Source: Bacteroidota bacterium (GTDB lineage Bacteria; Bacteroidota; Bacteroidia; Palsa-948). From it: a stretch of DNA of 64,000 nt. This document shows positions 5,783-24,065 of this stretch, piece by piece. The stretch covers positions 19,411 to 83,410 of the forward strand of contig JACQAL010000036.1 of the NCBI GenBank assembly GCA_016195025.1. Direction: 5' to 3'. The notes beneath the pieces are model-generated. The model was not told the DNA's origin and searched no databases. It was given only the letters and a program-made list of their open reading frames with translations. A program made the position numbers and the translations under genes. Every line of letters begins with the position of its first letter. Position 1 is the first letter of the stretch.

Positions 5783-6124
5783 TTAGTTGATGTTAATTGA
5801 AACGCTTTTTGTTTTGGATTGCTTGCCCGGGTGGTTCACCGTGCACGATACCGTTATTTGCGAAGCACCTGCCGGAGCATTATACACCACCTGAGCGCTG
5901 CTGCCGCTGATGCTTCCTGAATTTACAGACCAATGGTAGGTTATTTCGGGGCAGGCATTCTGCACGGTGGCGGTTATTTTGGTGGATGCCGATTTGGAAA
6001 GCGTATACGTATCGGCAGAAAGATTGGTGAATTGAATCTCATCATTCGTTTTGGACGCACCTGGCTTCAGGCAGGAAGAGAAAACGATGGCAATAAAACC
6101 AATAAAAAGAAGAAGTTTTTTCAT
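5783..6124 (-). CDS. hypothetical lipoprotein (Ig-like beta protein)
   Basis: Lipoprotein signal ...VFSSCLKPG followed by a beta-rich sequence. Confidence 0.4.
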   Translation of the reverse strand: MKKLLLFIGFIAIVFSSCLKPGASKTNDEIQFTNLSADTYTLSKSASTKITATVQNACPEITYHWSVNSGSISGSSAQVVYNAPAGASQITVSCTVNHPGKQSKTKSVSININ

Positions 6125-6190
6125 GTTGAAAGATTGTTAAGGATGGATTTGTCCTTAGACGTATAAAGGTAGTAAAAGGTTACAGAAAAA

Positions 6191-7669: not shown

Positions 7670-8377
7670 ATGAAACGTATTTTTTTCGCAGTCATGCACT
7701 GCACGCCCAAGCAATTCGGAAAATTATTTCAATTGCTCAACAAAGTGATTGGCAAACTCACTGCTAATTCCAACATCTACGGCAATCCCGACCCTTCGCT
7801 GGGTGTTCTGCAAAACGAGGTGGTGCCTTTTGAAAAAGCCATTGCCGATGCAAAAAAAGGAGGCAGCGAAGCCACCGAAGCCCGCAACAAGGAAGCGCTG
7901 AAAGTTCACGGCTTGCTCAAAGAGGAACTTACCTATGTGAACAAGGTTGCAAAGAACGACAAGGACACCATTCTTCTTTCGGGTTTTGATGCAAGCGAAG
8001 AGCCGGAACCCGCTGAAGTTCCCGATGCTCCTGTAATTAAAAAAATTGACGATGGCGATTCACCGGGCACTGCAAAAATTTTTCTGGCGAAAACCACCAG
8101 CCCGCTCCTGACCAAAAAACAGAAATTAACTTTCATAATAGAAATGACCACCACCGTTTCTGATGAAAGCAGTTTCAAAACAGTTTTGCTCACGCATAAT
8201 TCAAAAAAACTGATTGTGCCCAACCTCGTTCGCGGGCAGGAAGTGTTCATTCGTATTTCGGTAATGAACGCCCGCGGGCAGAGCAACTGGAGTACGGTCG
8301 TTTCTTTCATTTCAAGAACGGGAGTAAACCCTCCATCGCCATCGCCCAATCCGAATCCGCTGCCGCCTGCCGTTTAA
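7670..8377 (+). CDS. hypothetical protein with an FN3-like C-terminal region and a P/S/N-rich tail
   Basis: No signal peptide. C-terminal beta-rich block and PSPSPNPNPLPP tail. No family recognised. Confidence 0.4.
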   Translation: MKRIFFAVMHCTPKQFGKLFQLLNKVIGKLTANSNIYGNPDPSLGVLQNEVVPFEKAIADAKKGGSEATEARNKEALKVHGLLKEELTYVNKVAKNDKDTILLSGFDASEEPEPAEVPDAPVIKKIDDGDSPGTAKIFLAKTTSPLLTKKQKLTFIIEMTTTVSDESSFKTVLLTHNSKKLIVPNLVRGQEVFIRISVMNARGQSNWSTVVSFISRTGVNPPSPSPNPNPLPPAV

Positions 8378-12719: not shown

Positions 12720-13605
12720 AAAAAACCATATACTCCTGCGGGTCAATCGGAGTGCCGTTATACCAGAGTTCAAAATGCAAATGCGGTCCGCTGGTTTGCT
12801 CGCCAGAGTTTCCAATCACCGCAATGGCTTCGCCTGCTTTCACAAACTGCCCCGCTTTTTTCATCAGCACCGAGCAATGCTTGTATGCCGACACCAGATT
12901 ATTTGAATGTTGTATCTGAATGGTATAACCCGTTTCAGAAGTCCATCCCGAAAATAAAACTGTTCCGTCAAGCGCGGCTTTGATGGGTTCATTTTCTTTC
13001 GCGGCAATATCCACTCCGTAATGTTCTTCCGCAGAGTTGAACGAAGCGGTTACCATTCCTTTCACAGGAGTGAAAAAGAAAAAGCTGCTGATTCCTTTTC
13101 CGTTTTTATTTTCTGAAAACGCCAGCGAATATTTATCCTGCGATTCCACTTCCGAACGGAATGCGACTTCTTCTTTGGTGGGTTTGATGTCTGCATTTTT
13201 CGGAACAGGATTTTTTTCTGTTTTATTTTTTTGAACCGCTGTGTCTCCTGAAACATTTCCGTTCAGAATATTTTTCAGGTTGTCCATTGCCTGCGTGCGC
13301 AGGTTCAATTCATATTGCAGCGAATCAAGTTTCAGCGAAAGATTGATGAGTTCCTGCCTCGTATTCACTTCCAAGCCGTAGCCGGGAATGTATTCGCGCA
13401 GCGGAGTGAATGCAACTAAACTTACGGTGAGCGTTATCATCACAATCGAAATCAATCCCACAAGCACAAAAATATTTAATGGGGTAAGCTTGAGAGAAAA
13501 TTGCTCCTCGAAAGAATCATCGTTCATCACCACCAGCCGGTAGCGATTGCGGATTTTCGCCCAGAAACCCTGTTTTTTCTTTTCTTCCATATAATAAGGT
13601 AGCAA
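12718..13605 (-). CDS. M23 family metallopeptidase with an N-terminal TM anchor
   Basis: HxxxD...GNSG...HLHFE motifs of LytM/M23 peptidases. Confidence 0.75.
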   Translation of the reverse strand: MLPYYMEEKKKQGFWAKIRNRYRLVVMNDDSFEEQFSLKLTPLNIFVLVGLISIVMITLTVSLVAFTPLREYIPGYGLEVNTRQELINLSLKLDSLQYELNLRTQAMDNLKNILNGNVSGDTAVQKNKTEKNPVPKNADIKPTKEEVAFRSEVESQDKYSLAFSENKNGKGISSFFFFTPVKGMVTASFNSAEEHYGVDIAAKENEPIKAALDGTVLFSGWTSETGYTIQIQHSNNLVSAYKHCSVLMKKAGQFVKAGEAIAVIGNSGEQTSGPHLHFELWYNGTPIDPQEYMVF

Positions 13606-13637
13606 AGATAGAAAAACTCACCCCGTCCTTCCGGACA

Positions 13638-13662
13638 CCCCTCTCTTTGCGAAAGAGAGGGG
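13638..13662. promoter_or_regulatory. perfect 25-bp GC-rich palindrome (11-bp arms) in the divergent M23/sir intergenic region
   Basis: cccctctcttt gcg aaagagagggg. No flanking T or A run, so it is not a canonical terminator. Confidence 0.5.
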
Positions 13663-13741
13663 AAGGGGTAAGTTCCAAAAAATAAATTTGGTGGTTTCAA
13701 AAAGGTTTGTACATTTGCCTACTAAATTGGTCGAGTTTCAA

Positions 13742-13831
13742 ATGAAGACAAAAATTACTTTCCAGACAATTATGACAATGTGTTGCTGCTGCTATATGCG
13801 GACGAGGAAGGGTTTTGTTTTTAAGCGATAA
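13742..13831 (+). CDS. 29-aa Cys-codon leader peptide MKTKITFQTIMTMCCCCYMRTRKGFVFKR upstream of the sulfate-assimilation operon
   Basis: ATG at 13742. Four consecutive Cys codons at 13781-13792, four Met codons, stop TAA at 13829. A terminator hairpin follows directly. Confidence 0.45.
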   Translation: MKTKITFQTIMTMCCCCYMRTRKGFVFKR

Positions 13832-13855
13832 AAAAATAAAACGTAACAGGCAAAA

Positions 13856-13888
13856 GCCCTTCCGAATAAAACCGCGAAGGGCTTTTTT
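13856..13888 (+). terminator. intrinsic terminator/attenuator in the sir leader, with a competing antiterminator
   Basis: Stem gcccttc(13856-62)/gaagggc(13876-82) followed by TTTTTT. The upstream ggaaggg (13805-13811, inside the leader ORF 3' end) can pair with cccttcc (13857-13863). Confidence 0.45.
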
Positions 13889-13934
13889 GTTGCCCGGAAT
13901 CCGAACAAGAATCATAAAAAAGAAAAAATAAAAT

Positions 13935-16055
13935 ATGCAAAGTTTCAGAACAGAGTTAGAAAATCCAATCGTAGAAAAAGACATTCTCGATTTGGAAAAA
14001 AAGATTTCTCTTTTCCGCGAAGGGAAAATTGATTCCGAAAAATTCCGTTCGCTTCGCCTTGCGCGCGGAGTTTACGGGCAGCGCCAGCAGGGAGTGCAGA
14101 TGATTAGGATAAAAATTCCGTTTGGAAAACTTTCGGTAAATCAATTGCTCGCCATCGCGGATATTTCGGATGAATATTCAACAGGCAATCTTCACCTCAC
14201 CACGCGTCAGGATGTGCAGATACATTATGTGTCGCTCGACAAAACTCCTGAACTCTGGGCAAAACTCGAGGCGAGCGACATCACGCTCCGCGAAGCGTGC
14301 GGAAACACAGTACGCAACATCACCGCGTCTGACATCGCGGGCATTGACCCGAAAGAACCTTTTGATGTTACGCCTTACGCGAACGCACTCTTCAAATTCT
14401 TTTTGAGAAATCCTATTCAGGAATCTCTCGGAAGAAAATTCAAGATTGCTTTTTCTTCGAGCGATGACGACACCGCTTATACTTTCATTCACGATTTAGG
14501 ATTTATTCCTAAGGTGAAAATTGAAAATGGAAAAATTGTTCGCGGTTTCAAAGTGGTGATTGGAGGAGGACTTGGTGCTCAACCATTCCTCGCACACACG
14601 GCTTATGAATTCCTGCCGGAAGAAAAAATTATTCCATTCGCGGAAGCAGCAGTCCGCGTGTTTGACCGCTATGGAGAAAGAACCAACCGCCACAAAGCGC
14701 GTTTGAAATATCTCATAGCGAAAATAGGGCTGGGAGAATTTTTGAGATTGGTGGAAGAAGAAACGCTCTCTTTGAAATCTGTTTCGTCAGAAGTTAAATT
14801 TGAATCTGAGATTCCGGATTTATCTCATCTGCAAAATACATTTACAACTTTAAAAATTTCTGACGACAGAAAATATCAGGAATGGTTAGACACAAACACA
14901 TTTGAACAAAAACAGCAGGGATATTTTGCGGTAGGAATAAATGTTCCGTTGGGAAATATAAAAACGAATAACGTTAGGAAGTTCGCAGAGATTGTAAAAA
15001 AATATTCTGCGGATGACATTCGTATTACTATCTCGCAAAACTTTTTGTTGCGCTTTGTTCCGAAACAGGCACTTCCCGCATTGTATAAAGAACTTGACGC
15101 AATCGGTTTGACTTTGCCCGGCTTTGGAAGCATTGCCGATATAACGGCTTGCCCGGGAACAGATACCTGCAATTTGGGAATTTCAAATTCCACAGGCATT
15201 GCGCTCGAACTTGAAAAAGTTATCCGCAATGAATTTTCGGAATTAGTTTACGAAAAGAATATTAAAATAAAAATCAGCGGGTGCATGAATTCCTGCGGAC
15301 AGCATTCGCTCGCGCACATCGGTTTTCACGGAAGCACTTTCAAGGCAGGCGCGCACGTTGTTCCCGCGTTGCAATTGCTTCTCGGTGGCGGTGCAACAGG
15401 AAATGGCGAAGGAAGAATCTCAGATAAGATTGTAAAAATTCCTTCCAAGCGCGGTCCCGCTGTTCTGAGAGCGATTCTTCGTGATTATGAAAAAAATTCT
15501 TTGCAGGAAGAAACCTTCAACGAATATTTTGACGCGCAGGGAAGAGAATATTTTGAAAATCTTTTGAAAGAGTTTACGGATTTATCTGCGCTCACCAATG
15601 ATGAATATAAAGATTGGGGATATGATGAAGCGTTCAAACCTGCAATCGGAGTTGGAGAATGCGCTGGAGTGCAGATTGATTTGGTGGCAACATTATTTTT
15701 TGAAGCAGAAGAAAAACTGGATTCTGCATTCACTTCTTTCGCTGAAAAACTTTTTGCCGATTCAATTTATCATTCATACAGCACATTTATTCATTCTGCA
15801 AAAGCAATATTGCTCACAAAACAAATTCAAACCAATTCTCAGTACAGTGTGCTGAATGAGTTTGAAAAACATTTTATACAGACAGGAGAAGATAAATTTC
15901 AGAATGGATTCAAAACTTTAGTTCTCCAAATTAACCAGACAGAACCTGAAAAAGAATTCGCTGAGTTTTATTTCACGCAGGCAAAATCATTTTTGAAATG
16001 GGTGAAAGAATACCGCGAAGAACAAATTAAAAAGGAAAGTTTAATCACAGCATAG
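13935..16055 (+). CDS. sir: assimilatory sulfite reductase hemoprotein (siroheme/[4Fe-4S], ferredoxin-type) with a C-terminal extension
   Basis: Nitrite/sulfite reductase ferredoxin-like half-domains and Cys clusters (CPGTDTCNLG, SGCMNSCGQH). Sits in an operon with cobA, cysH and cysD. Confidence 0.8.
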   Translation: MQSFRTELENPIVEKDILDLEKKISLFREGKIDSEKFRSLRLARGVYGQRQQGVQMIRIKIPFGKLSVNQLLAIADISDEYSTGNLHLTTRQDVQIHYVSLDKTPELWAKLEASDITLREACGNTVRNITASDIAGIDPKEPFDVTPYANALFKFFLRNPIQESLGRKFKIAFSSSDDDTAYTFIHDLGFIPKVKIENGKIVRGFKVVIGGGLGAQPFLAHTAYEFLPEEKIIPFAEAAVRVFDRYGERTNRHKARLKYLIAKIGLGEFLRLVEEETLSLKSVSSEVKFESEIPDLSHLQNTFTTLKISDDRKYQEWLDTNTFEQKQQGYFAVGINVPLGNIKTNNVRKFAEIVKKYSADDIRITISQNFLLRFVPKQALPALYKELDAIGLTLPGFGSIADITACPGTDTCNLGISNSTGIALELEKVIRNEFSELVYEKNIKIKISGCMNSCGQHSLAHIGFHGSTFKAGAHVVPALQLLLGGGATGNGEGRISDKIVKIPSKRGPAVLRAILRDYEKNSLQEETFNEYFDAQGREYFENLLKEFTDLSALTNDEYKDWGYDEAFKPAIGVGECAGVQIDLVATLFFEAEEKLDSAFTSFAEKLFADSIYHSYSTFIHSAKAILLTKQIQTNSQYSVLNEFEKHFIQTGEDKFQNGFKTLVLQINQTEPEKEFAEFYFTQAKSFLKWVKEYREEQIKKESLITA

Positions 16056-16056
16056 A

Positions 16057-16122
16057 ATGAAAAAGTTTCTGATAAAATATAAGTACGAATACTGTTGTTG
16101 CTGTCGAATGTGTCGAATGTGA
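16057..16122 (+). CDS. second Cys-codon mini-ORF MKKFLIKYKYEYCCCCRMCRM (21 aa), starting 1 nt after the sir stop
   Basis: ATG at 16057. Codons tgt tgt tgc tgt at 16093-16104 plus two more Cys. Stop TGA at 16120. Contains the tandem gtcgaatgt x2. Confidence 0.35.
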   Translation: MKKFLIKYKYEYCCCCRMCRM

Positions 16123-16184
16123 AGTAACTAAAACCGGAAACAAAACACCTGAAACTAAAAACTAATAACTATAAACTAAAAATT

Positions 16185-16958
16185 ATGTCAAACAAAAAAA
16201 TACAACCCAAACTAACTCTCGCAGGCGCAGGTCCCGGAGATCCGGATTTAATCACTGCGAAAGCAATCAACGCACTCGGAAAAGCCGACATTGTTTTGTA
16301 CGATGCGCTTGTAAATCCCGTTCTTCTTAAATATGCTTCACCGAATGTGAAAAAGATTTTCGTAGGAAAAAGAAACGGGCAGCATTCACTCAAGCAGGAG
16401 CAAATCAATAATCTCATAGTGGATTTAGCATTTACTTACGGACACATTGTTCGTTTAAAAGGAGGCGACCCATTTGTTTTCGGGCGCGGCTACGAAGAAA
16501 TTGAATATGCAGAATCATTCAACATAGAAACAGAAGTGATTCCCGGAATTTCTTCTTCAGTAGGCGTTCCTGCACGCGCTGGAATTCCTGTCACGCACCG
16601 TGGAGCCAGCGAAAGTTTCTGGGTGATTACCGGAACTACGCGCACAGGAGAACTTTCAAAAGATATTGCGCTCGCTTCACAGAGCACAGCAACAGTTGTC
16701 ATCCTGATGGGCGTTCATAAACTTCACGAGATTGTGGAAGTTTATAAATCATCCGGAAAAGAAAATCTTCCGATAGCGCTGATTCAGAACGGAACTTTGC
16801 CCGAAGAAAAAATTGCAGTGGGAACAATTTCTACCATAGAGAAAATCGTGAAAGAAAAACAAATCGGTTCGCCTGCAGTGATTGTTGCCGGAGAAGTTGT
16901 GAAACTTCATCCTGAATTTGTAGCGGAAGAAGTTTTGGAAAAATATCTGTTAAATTAA
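16185..16958 (+). CDS. cobA: uroporphyrinogen-III C-methyltransferase (siroheme branch)
   Basis: GAGPGDPDLIT motif and tetrapyrrole methylase fold. Confidence 0.85.
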   Translation: MSNKKIQPKLTLAGAGPGDPDLITAKAINALGKADIVLYDALVNPVLLKYASPNVKKIFVGKRNGQHSLKQEQINNLIVDLAFTYGHIVRLKGGDPFVFGRGYEEIEYAESFNIETEVIPGISSSVGVPARAGIPVTHRGASESFWVITGTTRTGELSKDIALASQSTATVVILMGVHKLHEIVEVYKSSGKENLPIALIQNGTLPEEKIAVGTISTIEKIVKEKQIGSPAVIVAGEVVKLHPEFVAEEVLEKYLLN

Positions 16959-16980
16959 TTTTCGTAAAGCAAAAACAAAA

Positions 16981-18531
16981 ATGGAAACCATAGAAGAAAA
17001 AATTACAATTGAAAAACAGGAAACCAACATCAATAAATTGTTTCCTATTTTTTTAAAGCTGGAGAAACTGAAAGTTCTCATTGTAGGCGGAGGAAATGTT
17101 GCGCTGGAAAAACTGAATGCAGTTCTTGCAAACAGTCCCGAAACGAATATAACTATTGTTGCGCCCGAAATCATAAATGAGATTTTCAAAATCTCCTATG
17201 AAAATGAGAATGTGAAAATAAAACAGCGCGTGTTTTTTCCCGGTGATTTGTTCAATGCAGATATTGTGATTGCCGCCACTGGCGACCACGACACGAACAA
17301 AATCATAAAGGACGAAGCGAAGAAGCGCGAAATGCTTGTGAACGTTGCCGATACTCCGGAGCTTTGCGACTTTTATCTTGGAAGCATTGTGAACAAAGGC
17401 GATTTGAAAATTGCCGTTTCTACAAATGGAAAATCTCCCACGCTTGCCAAGCGCGTCAAGGAAGTTTTGAATGATGCTATTCCGAATGAAACACAAAATG
17501 TTTTGGACAATCTCGAAGTGATTAGAAAAAAGTTGAACGGAAATTTTTCAGAGAAAGTAAAAAAGTTAAATGAAATTACTTCGGTATTAGCAGTGGAAAA
17601 TAATATTCATTCACTTCAGCCACACTTGCTGGTTGAAGAGGAAGAAAAACCAAAATACAAGCAGGCGAAATATTGGGTTATTTATTCCTTCTCCGCAATT
17701 GCATTGATGATTGTCGGGCATCTTTTATTTTCGTATTTGCCGCTGAATGCAATCGGAGGTTATATAGGTGAAGTTGCCGGTAAAATTGACAGCACACTTT
17801 TAATTTTTGTTGTCGGAGGATTTTTGGCGCAAATGGTAGATGGCGCGCTTGGAATGGCGTACGGAGTTACGGCAACAACTTTTCTTTTATCATTCGGAAT
17901 TTCTCCGGCTGCTGCGAGTGCAAGCGTGCACGCTTCGGAAATTTTTACGACCGGTGCTTCCGGAATTTCTCATCTGCGTTTTAAAAATGTGAACACAAAA
18001 TTGTTTCGCAATCTTTTAATCCCGGGAATTCTCGGAGCAATTCTCGGAGCATACATTTTATCTTCTCTGGAAAATTATGCGGTGTATATCAAACCTTTCG
18101 TTTCAGTTTATACATTGATTCTCGGAGTGGTGATTATCCGAAAAGCGATTCGGAAAATCCAGACGAAGAAAAAAATAAAACGAGTCGGACGCCTTGCTTT
18201 CATCGGAGCATTTCTCGATTCCATTGGCGGTGGCGGATGGGGACCGATTGTTTCTTCCACACTTATTGCGCGCGGAAGAAGCTGGCGCTACACCATCGGT
18301 TCGGTAAACCTTGCAGAATTTTTTGTAACACTTGCAAGTTCGATTACATTTTTCACCGTAATAGGAATTCATCACTGGTATGTAATTATCGGTTTAATCA
18401 TTGGCGGAATGATTGCCGCGCCTTTTGCCGCTTATCTCACTTCAAAAATTCCGGTTCGCGCAGGATTAATTACAGTAGGAGTTGTGGTGATTGTTGTAAG
18501 TTTGAGGATTCTTTTTAAAACATTCTTTTAG
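16981..18531 (+). CDS. fusion of a CysG N-terminal-like precorrin-2 dehydrogenase/sirohydrochlorin ferrochelatase domain with a TSUP (TauE/SafE, DUF81) membrane transporter domain
   Basis: Residues ~1-210 carry the Rossmann motif VLIVGGGNVALEK of Met8/CysG-N. Residues ~230-516 are polytopic, with the TSUP glycine motif (LDSIGGGGWGPIV). Confidence 0.7.
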   Translation: METIEEKITIEKQETNINKLFPIFLKLEKLKVLIVGGGNVALEKLNAVLANSPETNITIVAPEIINEIFKISYENENVKIKQRVFFPGDLFNADIVIAATGDHDTNKIIKDEAKKREMLVNVADTPELCDFYLGSIVNKGDLKIAVSTNGKSPTLAKRVKEVLNDAIPNETQNVLDNLEVIRKKLNGNFSEKVKKLNEITSVLAVENNIHSLQPHLLVEEEEKPKYKQAKYWVIYSFSAIALMIVGHLLFSYLPLNAIGGYIGEVAGKIDSTLLIFVVGGFLAQMVDGALGMAYGVTATTFLLSFGISPAAASASVHASEIFTTGASGISHLRFKNVNTKLFRNLLIPGILGAILGAYILSSLENYAVYIKPFVSVYTLILGVVIIRKAIRKIQTKKKIKRVGRLAFIGAFLDSIGGGGWGPIVSSTLIARGRSWRYTIGSVNLAEFFVTLASSITFFTVIGIHHWYVIIGLIIGGMIAAPFAAYLTSKIPVRAGLITVGVVVIVVSLRILFKTFF

Positions 18532-19235
18532 TGAGCGCTGAAAAAATAAATAGAATTGAAAAACTTGTTTCTGGAAAATCTCCGGAAGAATCTCTTGCTT
18601 TGCTTTCAAAAGAATTTTCCGGGACAATAATTTTCTCCACCAGTTTTGGTTTGGAAGACCAGGCAATCACGCATATTATTTTTTCACAAAATGTTCCGAT
18701 AAAAGTTTTCACTCTTGAAACAGGAAGATTGTTTCCCGAAACATATTCTGTTTGGAACAACACCAGAAAAAAATATGGGAAGAACATAGAATCTTTTTCT
18801 CCGAATGAAACCGCAGTGCAGAAATTAGTTTCAGAAAAAGGCCCGAACAGTTTTTATGAATCAGTTGAAAACAGATTAGAATGTTGTTTCATACGCAAAG
18901 TAGAACCGCTGCAGCGCGCGTTGATGGGAAATGAAATCTGGATTACGGGAATCCGAAAAAAACAATCGCAGCACAGAAATATTCTTTCTTCGGTGGAATG
19001 GGATGAGAAAAACAATATTGTAAAGTTTCATCCTTTGTTTGACTGGAGTTTTGATGAAGTAAAAAGTTTTATAAAGAAAAATAATATTCCCTATAATTCT
19101 TTGCACGACAAAGGATTTCCCAGTATCGGATGTCAGCCCTGCACGCGAGCAGTAAAAAACGGAGAAGATGCCCGAGCGGGAAGATGGTGGTGGGAAGACA
19201 CAACTAAAAAAGAATGCGGATTACATACACATTGA
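18531..19235 (+). CDS. cysH: phosphoadenylyl-sulfate (PAPS) reductase, thioredoxin-dependent
   Basis: The C-terminus ...SIGCQPCTR...ECGLH matches E. coli CysH. No CC...CxxC Fe-S motif is present. Confidence 0.85.
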   Translation: MSAEKINRIEKLVSGKSPEESLALLSKEFSGTIIFSTSFGLEDQAITHIIFSQNVPIKVFTLETGRLFPETYSVWNNTRKKYGKNIESFSPNETAVQKLVSEKGPNSFYESVENRLECCFIRKVEPLQRALMGNEIWITGIRKKQSQHRNILSSVEWDEKNNIVKFHPLFDWSFDEVKSFIKKNNIPYNSLHDKGFPSIGCQPCTRAVKNGEDARAGRWWWEDTTKKECGLHTH

Positions 19236-19238
19236 ATT

Positions 19239-20144
19239 ATGAAATATCATTTAGATTATCTTGACCAACTCGAATCCGAATCTATTCACATTTTTCGTGA
19301 AGTGGTGGGGCAATTTGAACGCCCTGCGCTTTTATTTTCCGGAGGAAAAGATTCCATCACATTAGTTCATCTTGCACTGAAAGCATTCCGTCCGGGAAAA
19401 TTTCCCTTTCCTTTAGTTCACATTGATACCGAACATAATTTTCCGGAAGCAATTCAGTTCAGAGACGAGTTGGTAAAAAAAATAGGAGAGAAATTAATTG
19501 TGCGAAGTGTTGGAGATACGATTAAACAAAAAGGATTGGTTGAACAAAGAGGAAGATTCTACAGCCGAAACGCTTTGCAAACCTATACGTTGCTTGACAC
19601 GATTGAAGAATTCCGTTTTGATGCTTGTATTGGTGGAGCACGCAGAGATGAAGAAAAAGCGCGAGCGAAAGAAAGAGTTTTTTCTGTGCGTGATGAATTC
19701 GGGCAGTGGGATCCGAAAAAACAAAGACCGGAGTTGTGGAGCATTTACAACGGAAGAATCCGTCAGGGAGAAAATGTGCGCGTGTTTCCGATTTCCAACT
19801 GGACAGAACTGGACGTTTGGAATTACATCAAGCGTGAGAAAATTGATTTGCCTTCCATTTATTTTTCTCACAAAAGAAAATGCATTGTTCGCCCCGGTGG
19901 CTTGCTGGCACTGACTGATTTTGTTTACACCGATGCGGACGATAGAATTGAAGAAAGAAAAGTTCGCTTCCGTACTGTTGGTGATGCAACATGTACCGCT
20001 GCGGTAGAATCAGAAGCAAATTCACTGGATGATATCATCCGTGAAATAGAAGAAACAAAAATCTCCGAACGCGGTGCAACGCGTTTGGATGACCAAACTT
20101 CCGATGCTTCGATGGAAGACAGGAAAAAGGGTGGTTATTTCTAA
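19239..20144 (+). CDS. cysD: sulfate adenylyltransferase subunit 2
   Basis: PP-loop SGGKDS and strong CysD similarity throughout. Confidence 0.9.
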   Translation: MKYHLDYLDQLESESIHIFREVVGQFERPALLFSGGKDSITLVHLALKAFRPGKFPFPLVHIDTEHNFPEAIQFRDELVKKIGEKLIVRSVGDTIKQKGLVEQRGRFYSRNALQTYTLLDTIEEFRFDACIGGARRDEEKARAKERVFSVRDEFGQWDPKKQRPELWSIYNGRIRQGENVRVFPISNWTELDVWNYIKREKIDLPSIYFSHKRKCIVRPGGLLALTDFVYTDADDRIEERKVRFRTVGDATCTAAVESEANSLDDIIREIEETKISERGATRLDDQTSDASMEDRKKGGYF

Positions 20145-20165
20145 GAAAACATTATAAAAAATTTG

Positions 20166-20247
20166 TAGGCGAGAGAGGATTTGAACCTCCACGGGTTTCC
20201 CCACTGGTTTCTAAGACCAGCACGTCTGCCAGTTCCGCCACTCGCCC
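20166..20247 (-). tRNA. tRNA-Leu (anticodon TAG), type II with a long variable arm
   Basis: Hand-folded cloverleaf. Acceptor GGGCGAG/CTCGCCT, anticodon loop CTTAGAA, variable arm TGGGGAAACCCGT, T-loop TTCAAAT. No encoded CCA. Confidence 0.8.
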
Positions 20248-20303
20248 GCGTTACTGCAAAATGTTTTGGCAAAAATAATATAAATCATTCGGCATGGGAA
20301 ACT

Positions 20304-20570
20304 TCATCCGCCCGGATGTTTTCTCAAATGTTCATCGGCAGAAAATGGTCCGGAGCCGTACACGAGAAAAACAAGCAGCAGTGCCACAACAAGAATAGAA
20401 AACCAGAACTGTGAATAAAAATCAAACATTCCGCTTTCTTTCCCGTTGAGAATTACCGCGCCAATCAGAATGGGAATCTGAAAAACAATTGCCCAGCGAG
20501 TAATTAATCCGAGCGCGATTAAAATTCCAGCACCCATCGCAATTCGCTCTATGTTAACTTTAGTTTCCAT
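20304..20570 (-). CDS. small three-TM membrane protein (DoxX-like?)
   Basis: Three hydrophobic helices. Weak family assignment. Confidence 0.4.
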   Translation of the reverse strand: METKVNIERIAMGAGILIALGLITRWAIVFQIPILIGAVILNGKESGMFDFYSQFWFSILVVALLLVFLVYGSGPFSADEHLRKHPGG

Positions 20571-20668
20571 ATTGATTTTTCGTTTAAGGTACGGAAGCGA
20601 AGCAATTACTAAAAATTAAATTCGATGCCTTGCAAATAATTACTCATGCGCTGTTTCCATCATAAGAA

Positions 20669-21364
20669 TTATGCAAGAAATTTCAGGCGCTGCATCAGCC
20701 CTTTTAATTTTGAACGGCTCACAGGAATAAGTTTCGGACCAAGCACCAAGCAATTATCTTCTATCTCCGAAATTTTATCAAGCCGGATGATGTAAGAATT
20801 ATGTGCGCGGAAAAATTTTTTTTCAGAGAGGGCTTTTTCCATTCCCTTCATAGTGGAATGGATGGTGTATTTATTGACTGATCTGTGAATGGTTACATAA
20901 TCTGCCAGCGCTTCCACAAACAAAATATCACGCGTATCAATTTTCACAAGGCGGGAATTCACCTTAATAAATAAATGTTCCTCATCGTGCGAAGAAATTC
21001 CTGTCTGCATTTCGTGCATTCGTTTGGCTTTTGTAATGGAGCGGAAAAAACGTTCGTTCGAAATTGGTTTCACTATAAAATCGGTTACTTCAAAATCAAA
21101 TGCGTCCACTGCAAAATCTTTATTCGAGGAAATTAAAATCACCTGTGGGCGCTCTTCTTTCAACGCGTTCATCAGTTCCAGTCCGTTTGTTTCGGGCATC
21201 ATCACATCGAGAATCATTAAATCCACTTGTTCGCCCATTAATGCAGTAATTGCTTCTGCAGGAGAAGAACAGGACTGGGCCAGATTCAAAAAAGAAACTT
21301 GCGCAATTTTATTTTCCAAATCGAGCCGGGCAGTAGCATCATCGTCTACAATTATGCAGTTCAT
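20669..21364 (-). CDS. LytTR-family response regulator (receiver plus LytTR DNA-binding domain), orphan
   Basis: Receiver motifs (IVDDD..., LDVMMP). The C-terminal LytTR domain has the ...HRS.... shape. No histidine kinase is adjacent. Confidence 0.8.
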   Translation of the reverse strand: MNCIIVDDDATARLDLENKIAQVSFLNLAQSCSSPAEAITALMGEQVDLMILDVMMPETNGLELMNALKEERPQVILISSNKDFAVDAFDFEVTDFIVKPISNERFFRSITKAKRMHEMQTGISSHDEEHLFIKVNSRLVKIDTRDILFVEALADYVTIHRSVNKYTIHSTMKGMEKALSEKKFFRAHNSYIIRLDKISEIEDNCLVLGPKLIPVSRSKLKGLMQRLKFLA

Positions 21365-21973
21365 ATAGGAGGAATCGAAAAATGTATGCCAACTATCGAA
21401 AGAAAATTAAAAAATTATTTTCCGTTCTATCTTTGAATAGAATGTTCTTTGAAGTATAGTAGCCGGCAGAAAAAGGAAAAAAACAAAAGGTTGTTCTACC
21501 GCTAAAACAGTAATCCAACTTAGGTTTTTGAGTTTTTCTCCGGCGATATATATACAATGGCTGAAGAAGTTAGTATGAGAATTATTTTTCTTGAGCCGAT
21601 AATGAGAAAGGGCGGCTTTCGCAGAATTTTTTCCTGACGGAAAAGGCATTGCAGTAAAAAAATCTACTCTGCGAAAGCGCTCGGACTCATTAAATATGAT
21701 AGAAACTATTTTCTCATCCTGCATCAACGGATGATGATATCATCGTTTCGAGACAAAGTTGAAGTCAGATAAGAGGTTGGATGAGAAAAAACGCAGGCAG
21801 AGAGGACGAGAGCAATTTACCGATTTATCGGCATTTTGCTACTTCCTCTCAGAATGCTTGCGTGATGTAAATTATAAGCCGCAGAACTGCAAAACGGGTA
21901 GGAAAATATTTTTAGAAAAAAAAATTTTGATTCCTGTACTTGCGAATGAAAAAGATTCTGCGGTTTATTTTTG

Positions 21974-22045
21974 TGGTCTCACCCGGATTCGAACCGGGAT
22001 TTTGAGCTCCGGAGACCCATGTACTATCCATTATACTATAAGACC
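21974..22045 (-). tRNA. tRNA-Arg (anticodon CCG)
   Basis: Cloverleaf with anticodon loop CTCCGGA, identical to the E. coli Arg-CCG loop. T-arm CCCGG/TTCGAAT/CCGGG. Confidence 0.7.
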
Positions 22046-22076
22046 AAAAAATAGAATTACAAAAGCGAAGAAAATG

Positions 22077-22160
22077 TGCCCGGAAAAGGAATCGAACCTT
22101 CACGGTATTGCTACCATTGGTGTTTGAGACCAACGCGTCTACCAGTTCCGCCATCCGGGC
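22077..22160 (-). tRNA. tRNA-Leu (anticodon CAA), type II
   Basis: GCCCGGATGGCGGAACTGGTAGACGCG..., anticodon loop CTCAAAC, long variable arm, T-loop TTCGATT. Confidence 0.8.
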
Positions 22161-22191
22161 AGGGATGCAAATGTAAAATTGATTGTCAAAT

Positions 22192-22602
22192 CTAAATCCG
22201 TTTCAGATAAAAATTTTCCTGCGTGCGCATTTCTTTTTTCTCTTTTGCCTTTTTGTCTTTGTAGCCGCAGAGGTGTAGAATTCCGTGAATCATTACGCGA
22301 TTTAATTCGTTCTGAAATGATGCGCCAAACTTTTTTGCATTTTCTTGCACGCGCGGAATGCTGATGAAAATTTCTGCCGTTAATTTTGGGGATGGATATT
22401 GAAAAGTGATAATATCCGTAAGCGTATTATGCTTAAGAAATTTTTTATTCAGCGAAAGAAGAAATTTATCATCGCAGAAAATAAAATTAATTTCTCCGGC
22501 TTTTCTTTTTTCTTTACCAATAACAGAGATAAGAAATTTTTTCACAGCATTTTCTTTCTTCAATGAAAAAGAAATATTCTGTGAAAAAAAATGAACAGCC
22601 AT
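22192..22602 (-). CDS. ybeY: rRNA maturation endoribonuclease YbeY
   Basis: HGILHLCGYKDK, which is the H..LHL.GYDH zinc motif. Confidence 0.8.
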   Translation of the reverse strand: MAVHFFSQNISFSLKKENAVKKFLISVIGKEKRKAGEINFIFCDDKFLLSLNKKFLKHNTLTDIITFQYPSPKLTAEIFISIPRVQENAKKFGASFQNELNRVMIHGILHLCGYKDKKAKEKKEMRTQENFYLKRI

Positions 22603-22612
22603 TCAGCAGTTC

Positions 22613-23950
22613 TTAGAAGAGTTTGTGAGTTTCTAAAAACTTTGTTGTGTAATTTCCTTTTCGGAAATCCTCGTTCTCCATTAGTTTGATGTGAAAAGCA
22701 ATTGTAGTTTTCACGCCTTCAATTACAAATTCTCCGAGCGCGCGGTGCATTTTTGAAATGGCTTCTTCGCGTGTTTGCGCAACGGTAATCAGTTTTGCAA
22801 CCATTGAATCGTAATAAGGCGGAATCACGTAGCCGGCATAAATGTGAGTGTCCACGCGAATGCCATGCCCGCCCGGTACATGCAGCGTGGTGATTTTTCC
22901 CGGTGAAGGACGGAAATCATTTTGCGGATCTTCGGCATTAATGCGGCACTCGATGGAATGCAGTTGCGGAAAATAATTTTTCCCTGAAATAGGAACTCCG
23001 GCTGCAATCTGAATTTGCTCGCGGATTAAATCGTAGTCAATCACTTCTTCCGTGATCGGATGCTCGACTTGAATCCGTGTGTTCATCTCCATGAAATAAA
23101 AATTGCGGTGCTTGTCAACCAGAAATTCTATTGTGCCCACACCTTCGTATTTAATTGCGTTGGCAAGTTTCACAGCGGCTTCGCCCATAGCGTTGCGCAG
23201 TTCCGGAGTCATAAACGGGGAAGGTGTTTCTTCAGCAAGTTTCTGATGCCGTCTTTGAATCGAGCAATCCCGTTCGGAAAGATGACATGCTTTTCCATAT
23301 TGGTCGCCCGCAATCTGAATTTCTATATGGCGCGGCTCCTCAATAAATTTTTCCATGTACATGCCGTCATTTCCAAAAGAGGCGAGCGCTTCTTTGCGCG
23401 CAGATTCCCAGGCGTGCTCGATTTCTTTTTCTTCGTGAACAATGCGCATTCCTTTTCCTCCGCCACCCGCAGTTGCTTTCATCAAAACGGGATAGCCGAT
23501 TTTTTTTGCAGTGGCTTTTGCATCTTCCAAACTTTCGAGCAAACCATCCGAGCCGGGAACGCAGGGAACTCCGGCTTTTTTCGCAGTGGCTTTTGCCGAT
23601 GCTTTGTCGCCCATTGCATCAATCATTTCCGGTGTGGGACCGATGAATTTTATTTCGTGCTCGGCACAAATCTGGGCGAACTTGGAACGCTCAGATAAAA
23701 ATCCATAGCCGGGATGAATGGCATCTGCATTGGTGATTTCAGCTGCAGCAATAATATTTGGAATGTTCAGATAAGAATCTTTGCTTGCTGGCGGACCTAT
23801 GCAAACCGCTTCATCGGCAAAACGAACGTGTAAAGAATCTTTATCGGCAGTGGAATAAACGGCAACCGTTTTTATTCCCATTTCCTTGCAGGAACGAATG
23901 ATTCGCAGGGCAATTTCCCCGCGATTGGCTATAAGTATTTTTTTAAACAC
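22613..23950 (-). CDS. accC: acetyl-CoA carboxylase biotin carboxylase subunit
   Basis: ATP-grasp biotin carboxylase beginning [19 protein letters not shown]..., with strong conservation throughout. Confidence 0.9.
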
Positions 23951-24065
23951 AAATTTGGTTTAAGGTTATTGGTTTATTAGTTTTAGTTGATTGGTTTTTA
24001 GTTTTTGTTAACCAGAACCGGCAACTAAAAACCAAAATCAATAACTAAGAAACAAAGAACTAAAA

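Follow-up and report, generated by a model that had tools for sequence, protein, structure and literature searches.

The sensing of amino acids by ribosomes that stall on short open reading frames (ORFs) is textbook knowledge for 5' leaders, and tnaC of Escherichia coli represents another design, in which TnaC arrests the ribosome at its stop codon on free Trp and masks the adjacent rut site, placing tnaA under the control of Rho. For cysteine, stalling control has to our knowledge been shown only in mycobacteria. Here we describe a cysteine-rich mini-ORF at the junction between sir and cobA in a sulfur-assimilation operon of a Bacteroidota bacterium (contig JACQAL010000036.1); the 64-kb stretch that was analyzed is referred to, at its full length, as the window. 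As far as we know, members of this phylum do not use Shine-Dalgarno-based initiation, and their post-transcriptional control is poorly known. Actinobacterial Cys leader ORFs upstream of mycobacterial cys operons were reported “without obvious terminators” and as possibly Rho dependent, and the analogy with tnaC was invoked for Rho-dependent leaders in the same work (Seliverstov 2005, PMC1262725). Leaderless polycysteine ORFs that form a “Cys ribulon” were shown to be translational attenuators, and in one of them, Ms5788A, the downstream ribosome-binding site is buried in an RNA duplex until a ribosome stalls on the Cys tract and opens it (Canestrari 2020, bioRxiv 10.1101/834739). A Cys upstream ORF with a terminator, uORFC-8-2, precedes cysS in Rhodobacterales (PMC8632094). 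Full-text searches of the literature found no description of Cys or Cys/Met leader ORFs in Bacteroidota.

We put at about even chances the reading that the mini-ORF is a genuine translated regulatory small ORF (sORF), which would sense charged tRNA-Cys, and probably charged tRNA-Met too, from inside the operon and via ribosome occupancy, in addition to the sensor in the 5' leader. This reading has moderately good support as to sensing; which effector is at work (Rho versus RNase), and even in which direction expression changes, is what we infer. A second Cys sensor had already been proposed in a first-pass annotation of this DNA, and the proposal is supported in part, by an sORF that is conserved and constrained in its frame, has the design of a leader peptide, and lies in an operon with a 5' Cys attenuator. 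None of the computed results points to the Rho-dependent polarity or the control of reinitiation that the annotation suggested for this sensor. Single-Cys members of the family, the constraint on the N terminus, and the enrichment of Met together with Cys codons go beyond that annotation. The elements of the junction are the following.

16057 to 16122, + strand: junction mini-ORF (sORF), MKKFLIKYKYEYCCCCRMCRM, from direct reading and translation
16093 to 16119, + strand: proposed sensor segment of Cys and Met codons, including the 9-nt tandem TGTCGAATG x2, from direct reading
16123 to 16184, + strand: untranslated spacer of 62 nt (36 A, 11 T, 11 C, 4 G), from composition count and fold

The sORF comprises 21 codons, with its ATG at 16057 and a TGA stop at 16120 to 16122. 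The sir stop codon, TAG at 16053 to 16055, is followed by a single A and then by this ATG (TAG-A-ATG), so that the 1-nt distance given in the first-pass annotation was borne out. The same is true of the four successive Cys codons (TGT TGT TGC TGT, 16093 to 16104), but only one further Cys codon follows (16111 to 16113) and not two, for a total of 5 Cys residues (13 to 16 and 19). Met codons occur internally at positions 18 (16108 to 16110) and 21 (16117 to 16119), giving 5 Cys and 3 Met in 21 residues. A perfect 9-nt tandem, TGTCGAATG x2 at 16102 to 16119, corresponds to codons 16 to 18 and 19 to 21 (CRM CRM) and is the repeat first recorded as gtcgaatgt x2, with the register shifted by 1 nt. 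Its second copy adds one Cys-Arg-Met unit to the sORF. Because the element is single copy in the closest relative listed below (L161, 88% sir identity), the tandem appears to be a recent duplication, and a role as a conserved binding site is ruled out.

Runs of at least four TGY codons occur twice on the two strands of the whole 64 kb, at 13781 to 13792 in the 5' leader and at 16093 to 16104 in the sORF, and both fall in noncoding gaps of the sulfur-assimilation operon. Since our base-composition estimate of the chance expectation is ~0.1, two Cys-codon runs in one operon exceed chance, as had been supposed. The sORF is also an extreme outlier in Cys and Met among the sulfur-poor enzymes of the operon, because its 5 Cys codons compare with 6 in the whole 706-residue sir product and none in cobA.

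Comparison with the described systems shows both likenesses and differences. As in the actinobacterial polycysteine sORFs, the Cys run lies near the stop codon, in a cysteine/sulfur-assimilation operon and with no intrinsic terminator after it; stalling on scarce Cys-tRNA is proposed, and several sORFs per genome or operon are possible. Whereas each of those sORFs opens a leaderless mRNA, the junction sORF is internal, lies behind 2.1 kb of sir coding sequence, and begins 1 nt past the stop of that 706-codon gene; its host phylum is without Shine-Dalgarno initiation, Met codons are co-enriched, and the N-terminal peptide is constrained. Unlike the case of Ms5788A, a start-hiding duplex was looked for at the junction and none was found. 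The ~20 codons, with regulatory codons that begin at ~10 to 13 and end a few codons before the stop, match trpL, hisL, pheL, cysS uORFC-8-2, and the operon's own 5' leader, and the proposed sensing by stalling on scarce charged tRNA is that of the trpL/hisL/pheL type. Unlike that type, the sORF has no terminator or antiterminator, is not in a 5' leader, and would be translated by ribosomes leaving sir. With tnaC-tnaA it shares the order of a leader ORF followed by an unstructured spacer with no terminator, and whether Rho acts is proposed to depend on ribosomes that occupy the 3' end of the ORF. However, a ribosome stalled at the junction would stand 6 to 10 codons before the stop codon if held at the Cys run, or 2 codons before it if held at Cys19, and would leave the G-poor tract exposed. 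As in termination-reinitiation coupled cistrons of the ATGA type, the start lies a few nucleotides from the upstream stop and does so across relatives, but the coupled ORF here is a 21-codon Cys/Met-rich sORF, and the next enzyme starts 62 nt further on. We thus regard the sORF as a variant of the polycysteine attenuators and not as a member, as it appears to share their sensing principle but lacks the 5' or leaderless position, the terminator, and the sequestering duplex.

Conservation of a Cys-rich ORF at the sir-cobA junction had been named as the check to make, and both the ORF and its link to the sir stop codon are conserved in relatives. We examined 80 genome and 80 metagenome loci around sir homologues (at least 80 of each), with 13 closer loci added through protein search or contig look-up; the carriers are uncultured Bacteroidota metagenome-assembled genomes (MAGs) and metagenomes. 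Among the loci listed, the family has ~18 members, 11 of which contain at least two consecutive Cys residues. Across 49 nonidentical sir-cobA junctions of 60 to 300 nt, ATG-initiated ORFs with at least two consecutive Cys residues numbered 11 in the sense direction versus 1 antisense and 0.21 in shuffles, and those with at least three numbered 7 versus 0 and 0.00. Every aligned member has the start Met and the first Cys; the Cys run begins without exception at codons 11 to 14 and in most members stops 3 to 6 codons short of the stop codon. The residues after the run vary freely in length and composition, and mean column identity for the family is 25%. Gene callers overlook what is, in these genomes, a conserved and apparently translated sORF family. 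Members from the lineages nearest to the window include the following.

L161, sir identity 88%: sORF MKKFRIIYKYEYCCSCMMCRMWHAVKPRTR (begins MKKFRIIYKYEYCCSCMMCRM), gap to the sir stop 4 nt
L162, sir identity 85%: sORF MKIHLIKYRYGRCCCKCK, gap 1 nt
L163, sir identity 76%: sORF MKKLFIHIIYEYCRMRI, gap 2 nt
L082, sir identity 74%: sORF MKTFFIHIRYEYCCCMRMR, gap 1 nt
L169, sir identity 71%: sORF MKRINKQISLIYFYCCFN, gap 10 nt
L173, sir identity 70%: sORF MKRKYTISIRFEYCRV, ATGA overlap with the sir stop
L019, sir identity 64%: sORF MKKYIVHRKYCCCFCMCMR, gap 1 nt
L022, sir identity 64%: sORF MKKINYKKFGYCCCCMSMP, gap 1 nt

L084, L086, L005, and L039 are further members of this kind (type I). The start codon lies between 4 nt before and 4 nt after the sir stop in 11/17 members; six of them have a gap of 1 nt (the window, L082, L019, L022, L162, and L004), L163 and L084 have one of 2 nt, L161 has one of 4 nt, and L012 and L085 show an ATGA overlap, as does L173, which was added to these 17. 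In the members that start farther away, a repeat-like insertion lies in between. Such insertions (CGTCAGTCTGAGCG..AGTCGAAG or GTCATCCCGAGCGGAGTCGAGGG) stand between the sir stop and the sORF or 3' of the sORF, which survives them (L005 8125 to 8200, L039 8125 to 8205, L083 6128 to 6195, L084 6200 to 6300, and L163 5200 to 5225).

A second form (type II) is found at L003 4418 to 4564, L004 7075 to 7218, L012 8133 to 8279, L083 6197 to 6352, and L085 4583 to 4747. These ORFs have 47 to 54 codons, a strongly conserved N terminus, MKTQFKHHIKFGSCWYDNFFK, and a variable Lys/Asn/Gln-rich tail; they begin on the sir stop or close to it and reach to between -17 and +11 nt of the cobA ATG, bridging the two genes. 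They have no Cys run and read SCW, which may be derived from CCC via two point changes. All 11 poly-Cys members keep an untranslated spacer of 27 to 136 nt, and the type II ORFs cover the spacer fully.

Most Mucilaginibacter- and Pedobacter-type loci have a direct sir-cobA ATGA overlap and no sORF. Seven Pedobacter-type junctions (L064, L072, L073, L076, L150, L152, and L154) carry tandem ATGAGATTTGAGA from the sir stop (ATGA; ~8088 to 8135 or 6088 to 6135), and these repeats encode ORFs of ~15 residues such as MRFETIDMRFENRKR, after which “CATTCATTCAAAAT” repeats precede cobA. These ORFs were set aside as family members, as their Cys is not conserved and they appear to belong to a different repeat element. 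At L087, deletion of one T from a T9 run would be needed to bring an NCRCCR-encoding stretch into frame with an ATGA start; as this may reflect a frameshift or an assembly error, the locus was excluded. L082 (6195 to 6290; the same locus as L170/L171, 4695 to 4790) has no ATG, GTG, or TTG from the sORF stop to the conserved cobA KIQPKLTLAGAGPGD. Relative to the window, 'ATGT' is missing there, and the cobA frame is open back to the sORF TAA and in frame with the sORF. Gene callers shorten this cobA to 215 residues, and the sequence is identical in the JGI and European Nucleotide Archive (ENA) assemblies; a non-AUG start (ATT or ATA), stop-codon readthrough, or a pseudogene could account for it.

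Pairwise counts of nonsynonymous relative to synonymous changes (pN/pS) gave 0.29 for type I (13 codons up to and including the first Cys, five loci) and 0.16 for type II (21 codons, five loci), compared with 1.0 to 1.5 in both other frames of both types, although these values come from a small data set of 13 to 21 codons with nonindependent pairs, which weakens the case for the sensor. The signal is nonetheless frame specific, with synonymous sites near saturation. The spacer after the sORF fails to align between the loci compared. Because pN/pS is low in the ORF frame only, we take the sORF as translated, apparently with its N-terminal peptide under constraint. The constrained N terminus is the nascent chain that is present when the ribosome meets the first Cys.

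The first Cys sensor of the operon lies upstream of sir, where three elements were identified.

13710 to 13717, + strand: operon promoter candidate TACATTTG, a match to the -7 motif TAnnTTTG, from a motif scan upstream of the 5' leader
13742 to 13831, + strand: 5' leader ORF MKTKITFQTIMTMCCCCYMRTRKGFVFKR, with its Cys run at 13781 to 13792, from the ORF list, translation, and TGY-run scan
13852 to 13888, + strand: predicted intrinsic terminator of the 5' attenuator, hairpin AAAAGCCCTTCCG...CGCGAAGGGCTTTT and a T run, from the fold

TAnnTTTG is the -7 promoter consensus of Bacteroidota, the string “ttgtacatttgcc” at this site is kept in L082, and TACATTTG at 13710 is the likely operon promoter. 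The leader folds with a minimum free energy of -43.4 kcal/mol (z = -2.61 versus shuffles). GGAAGGGTTTTG at 13806 to 13817 duplicates, on direct reading, most of the 3' arm of the terminator and therefore can, in principle, pair with the 5' arm as an antiterminator. We interpret 13742 to 13888 as a classical terminator-type Cys-codon attenuator. Homologous 5' leaders are present in L082, L161 to L163, and L167.

Relatives (L081, L165, L166, L169, L172, L173, L004, L005, and L012) often have two tandem leader ORFs upstream of sir. At L081 (3635 to 3960), the locus checked in sequence, MTNKKLFTANCTCNICCMMCN is followed by MKITSNILLTIGTQAHCCCCMMCCCMQARREYALKC, each with its own hairpin and T-run terminator; of these types, the window carries the second alone. 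Poly-Cys junction sORFs are found in 4/7 single-leader versus 1/7 double-leader genomes, an inverse tie between leader number and junction sORF that is suggestive only, as the numbers are small and phylogenetically nonindependent. Met codons are interleaved with Cys codons in both 5' leaders and junction sORFs (MMCCMMCA, MCMCCMM, MMMCCCMCM, CCCCRMCRM), at 16105 to 16119 and 13772 to 13798 of the window and in the leaders of L004, L005, L012, L082, L165, and L166. Such mixed runs suggest one stalling element that reads both sulfur amino acids; a full-text search, not confined to any organism, found no text on leader peptides that combine Met and Cys codons.

The 62-nt spacer contains no ATG, GTG, or TTG, and the G-poor tract extends into the first ~36 nt of cobA (GC skew of -0.79 at 16140 to 16219). 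Eight hairpin-free spacers of the family (401 nt in total) have 4.5% G and 18% C, versus ~16.5% each in upstream regions taken as controls. A Rho loading site could have such a composition, and so, equally, could an efficient Bacteroidota start region, for which A at -3, -6, -12, and -13 and low structure are characteristic (PMC6847099). The three direct repeats of AACTAAAA noted earlier in the spacer are present, although they start at 16126, 16153, and 16174 and not at 16125, 16151, and 16173. AACTAAAA occurs 12 times in the window versus 5.7 expected, a number reached in 3/100 shuffles. As a conserved element these repeats were rejected, since relatives share only an A-rich, G-poor spacer with loose (A)AAC repeats.

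The junction of the window folds no better than shuffles (-13.7 kcal/mol, z = +0.68), and a terminator scan of the window found no terminator-like site after the sORF, in agreement with the first-pass annotation. A promoter-motif scan found no TAnnTTTG between 14795 and 18497, and with both scans empty an internal promoter or terminator at the junction was rejected. Rfam searches returned only tRNAs and noise in 13000 to 23000 (E-value mode) and no junction match in five related loci (gathering mode). No junction structure is shared among the folds of the window, L019, L022, and L082; a hairpin over the stop codon in L082 and a pairing between the Cys run and AACAACAAUA in L019 were not reproduced elsewhere. 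We also paired the Cys-run segment with the spacer and first cobA codons in 11 loci, with 500 shuffles for the window. The best duplex in the window is -6.0 kcal/mol versus a shuffle mean of -10.2 kcal/mol, and 97% of shuffles pair at least as well; a duplex between the Cys run and the cobA start beats shuffles in 0/11 loci. Sequestration of the start in the mycobacterial manner was rejected on this result. RNA-switch mechanisms at the junction are thus not supported, which means that any output must come from ribosome occupancy itself.

Under the reading that we favor, ribosomes leaving sir would reinitiate 1 nt downstream and meet CCCC-R-M-C-R-M. When Cys or Met is scarce, they would stall on the sORF with followers queued behind, and the stalled and queued ribosomes would keep the junction covered during transcription of the G-poor, A-rich spacer and the cobA start. 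A junction covered in this way would be protected from entry of Rho or an endonuclease, resulting in more expression of cobA through cysD under sulfur-amino-acid limitation. When Cys is plentiful, the sORF would be cleared at once, leaving an intercistronic stretch of ~130 nt uncovered until the next ribosome passes, so that Rho or an endonuclease could enter, and expression of cobA, sirC::tauE, cysH, and cysD would be lowered. The net effect would be a checkpoint on the distal genes that is “ON when starved” and works by occupancy, with no RNA switch. This second checkpoint would compound the effect of the 5' attenuator multiplicatively, in the way that tandem leaders in relatives evidently work. 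A sensor whose target lies in the spacer is favored because the poly-Cys members keep the spacer and the type II ORFs, which cover it, have lost the run. The “ON when starved” sign is favored because nothing would be gained from a throttle that came into play only once the 5' attenuator had opened.

Several observations weigh against this reading. The evidence is comparative throughout, drawn from MAGs of uncultured bacteria and from metagenomes. No mechanical lever from the stalled ribosome to cobA was found, and since the G-poor tract lies downstream of the stall site and is uncovered, Rho or RNase could reach it in either state; the sole direct lever, reinitiation past the sORF stop, would work in the physiologically wrong direction and reduce cobA in starved cells. 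Spacers differ within the family, as GC-rich hairpins occur in L019, L022, and L084. L163 (MKKLFIHIIYEYCRMRI), L173 (MKRKYTISIRFEYCRV), and the five type II ORFs have a single Cys, so that the sORF can persist without a strong starvation sensor. L081, L164 to L168, and L172, with sir 70 to 74% identical, have no sORF and sir-cobA gaps of 9 to 53 nt. Finally, purifying selection acts on the 12 residues before the Cys run, which a pure codon sensor does not need. The single-Cys members, the constrained N terminus, and the close relatives without an sORF keep four other explanations alive, the last of them weakly.

The sORF might mainly hand ribosomes from sir towards cobA, in hosts devoid of Shine-Dalgarno sites, with its Cys codons either incidental or throttling the transfer, so that scarcity of Cys would mean less cobA. 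In most relatives sir and cobA are themselves coupled through a direct ATGA overlap, the sORF starts sit on the sir stop, and the ends of the type II ORFs, -17 to +11 nt from the cobA ATG, have the classic geometry of termination-reinitiation; the window spacer offers no competing start codon. The poly-Cys sORFs, however, stop 27 to 136 nt short of the cobA ATG, a distance too great for tight coupling, and the A residues at -3, -6, and -12 in the cobA start region give this gene a good start context of its own (PMC6847099). A throttle that acts only with the 5' attenuator open and Cys lacking brings no obvious benefit, and the upkeep of 3 to 5 Cys codons and Met codons in 11 lineages would go unexplained. 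We consider this explanation unlikely.

The nascent chain (MK.xF.I..[KR][YF][EG][YS]) and the invariant first Cys codon might together stall the ribosome on a small molecule, with free cysteine, sulfide, sulfite, and O-acetylserine as candidate ligands, in the way that TnaC responds to tryptophan; the extra Cys and Met codons would then only add starvation sensitivity. Such an arrest peptide would be consistent with the frame-specific purifying selection on the residues that occupy the exit tunnel at the first Cys, with the freedom of the residues after the run, with the persistence of single-Cys members, and with the retention of HIKFGSCWYDNFFK in type II through many synonymous changes. The N-terminal constraint may, on the other hand, reflect what initiation requires of the early codons, for example that they be A rich; across the family the motif holds only loosely (mean column identity as given above). 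No resemblance to known arrest motifs was found or tested for, and here, too, no downstream lever was identified. An arrest-peptide sensor therefore seems rather unlikely to us. Equally speculative is an element in which arrest assisted by the 12-residue N terminus and the invariant Cys codon, in a phylum without Shine-Dalgarno initiation, would be loaded only by ribosomes finishing sir, would gate the distal operon without an RNA switch, and might sense a sulfur metabolite besides the charging of Cys- and Met-tRNA.

A third explanation makes the sORF an evolutionary relic, that is, a displaced or duplicated Cys/Met leader core that has lost its terminator and is still translated, with no regulatory output in this genome. 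The tail C-M-C-M-R or C-R-M is common to type B 5' leaders, and ..CCCMCMR.. in the 5' leader of L082 is matched by ..CCCFCMCMR at the junction of L019. The patchy distribution with repeated loss fits such an origin, as do the drift in Cys number from 1 to 5 and the proneness of TGT repeats to slippage. Against it, the sORF has been kept in the same place from 58% to 88% sir identity, with frame-specific purifying selection and a conserved start position, and a neutral ORF of 66 nt would not outlast divergence at which the adjacent spacer is not alignable. We rate this explanation, too, as rather improbable. A functional micropeptide of 21 residues, serving Sir as a carrier of metal or sulfur or otherwise taking part in sulfur or Fe-S/siroheme metabolism, could account for the purifying selection on the peptide, the one invariant Cys, and the location beside an Fe-S/siroheme enzyme but is very improbable, given that Cys count (1 to 5), Cys spacing, and C-terminal length are unconserved, unlike those of a metal- or cluster-binding site, that the peptide has no signal or transmembrane character, and that many close relatives have the same enzymes without the sORF.

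If the sensor reading is true, control of the “Cys ribulon” type would extend to Bacteroidota, and it would do so in an unusual layout, with a mid-operon sensor fed by termination-reinitiation that has neither a terminator nor a sequestering helix. With its output passing through ribosome occupancy alone (Rho, RNase, or reinitiation), a regulatory sORF of this kind would offer a clean system for the study of stalled-ribosome signaling without an RNA switch.

The genes of the operon, whose first-pass names agree with the Pfam matches (sir, cobA, the fusion, cysH, and cysD), are as follows.

13935 to 16055, + strand: sir, ferredoxin-type assimilatory sulfite reductase with a HEPN-like C-terminal extension (Pfam NIR_SIR, NIR_SIR_ferr, and HEPN; source protein names)
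16185 to 16958, + strand: cobA, uroporphyrinogen-III C-methyltransferase, the first distal gene (Pfam TP_methylase)
16981 to 18531, + strand: sirC-like::TauE fusion (Pfam NAD_binding_7, Sirohm_synth_M, and TauE)
18531 to 19235, + strand: cysH (Pfam PAPS_reduct)
19239 to 20144, + strand: cysD (Pfam PAPS_reduct)

The operon ends at 20144, before a minus-strand tRNA at 20166 to 20247, and cysN was not found after cysD. The sulfate-assimilation proteins encoded at 13935 to 20144 are markedly low in sulfur amino acids, with Cys/Met counts (including the start Met) of 6/3 for sir, 0/2 for cobA, 1/6 for sirC::TauE, 5/1 for cysH, and 3/2 for cysD. The HEPN-like segment at the C terminus of sir spans 15693 to 15896 (residues 587 to 654; Pfam E = 2.4e-5), and to it many such sulfite reductases owe the NCBI name “HEPN domain-containing protein.”

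Two inverted repeats were seen elsewhere in the window. A long imperfect one at 23951 to 24065, between two minus-strand genes and unrelated to the cys operon, has a G/T-rich arm, GGTTTATTAGTTTTAGTTGATTGGTTTTTAGTTTTTGTTAACC, and an A/C-rich arm with two copies of AACTAAAA, and two more copies lie on the minus strand in the G/T-rich arm; the second AACTAAAA cluster of the window (23981 to 24065) is part of this repeat. The other, CACCCCTCTCTTTGCGAAAGAGAGGGGAAGGGG, is GC rich and lies at 13620 to 13670, between a divergent M23 peptidase gene and the cys promoter, and a similar hairpin is found at the same place in L082.

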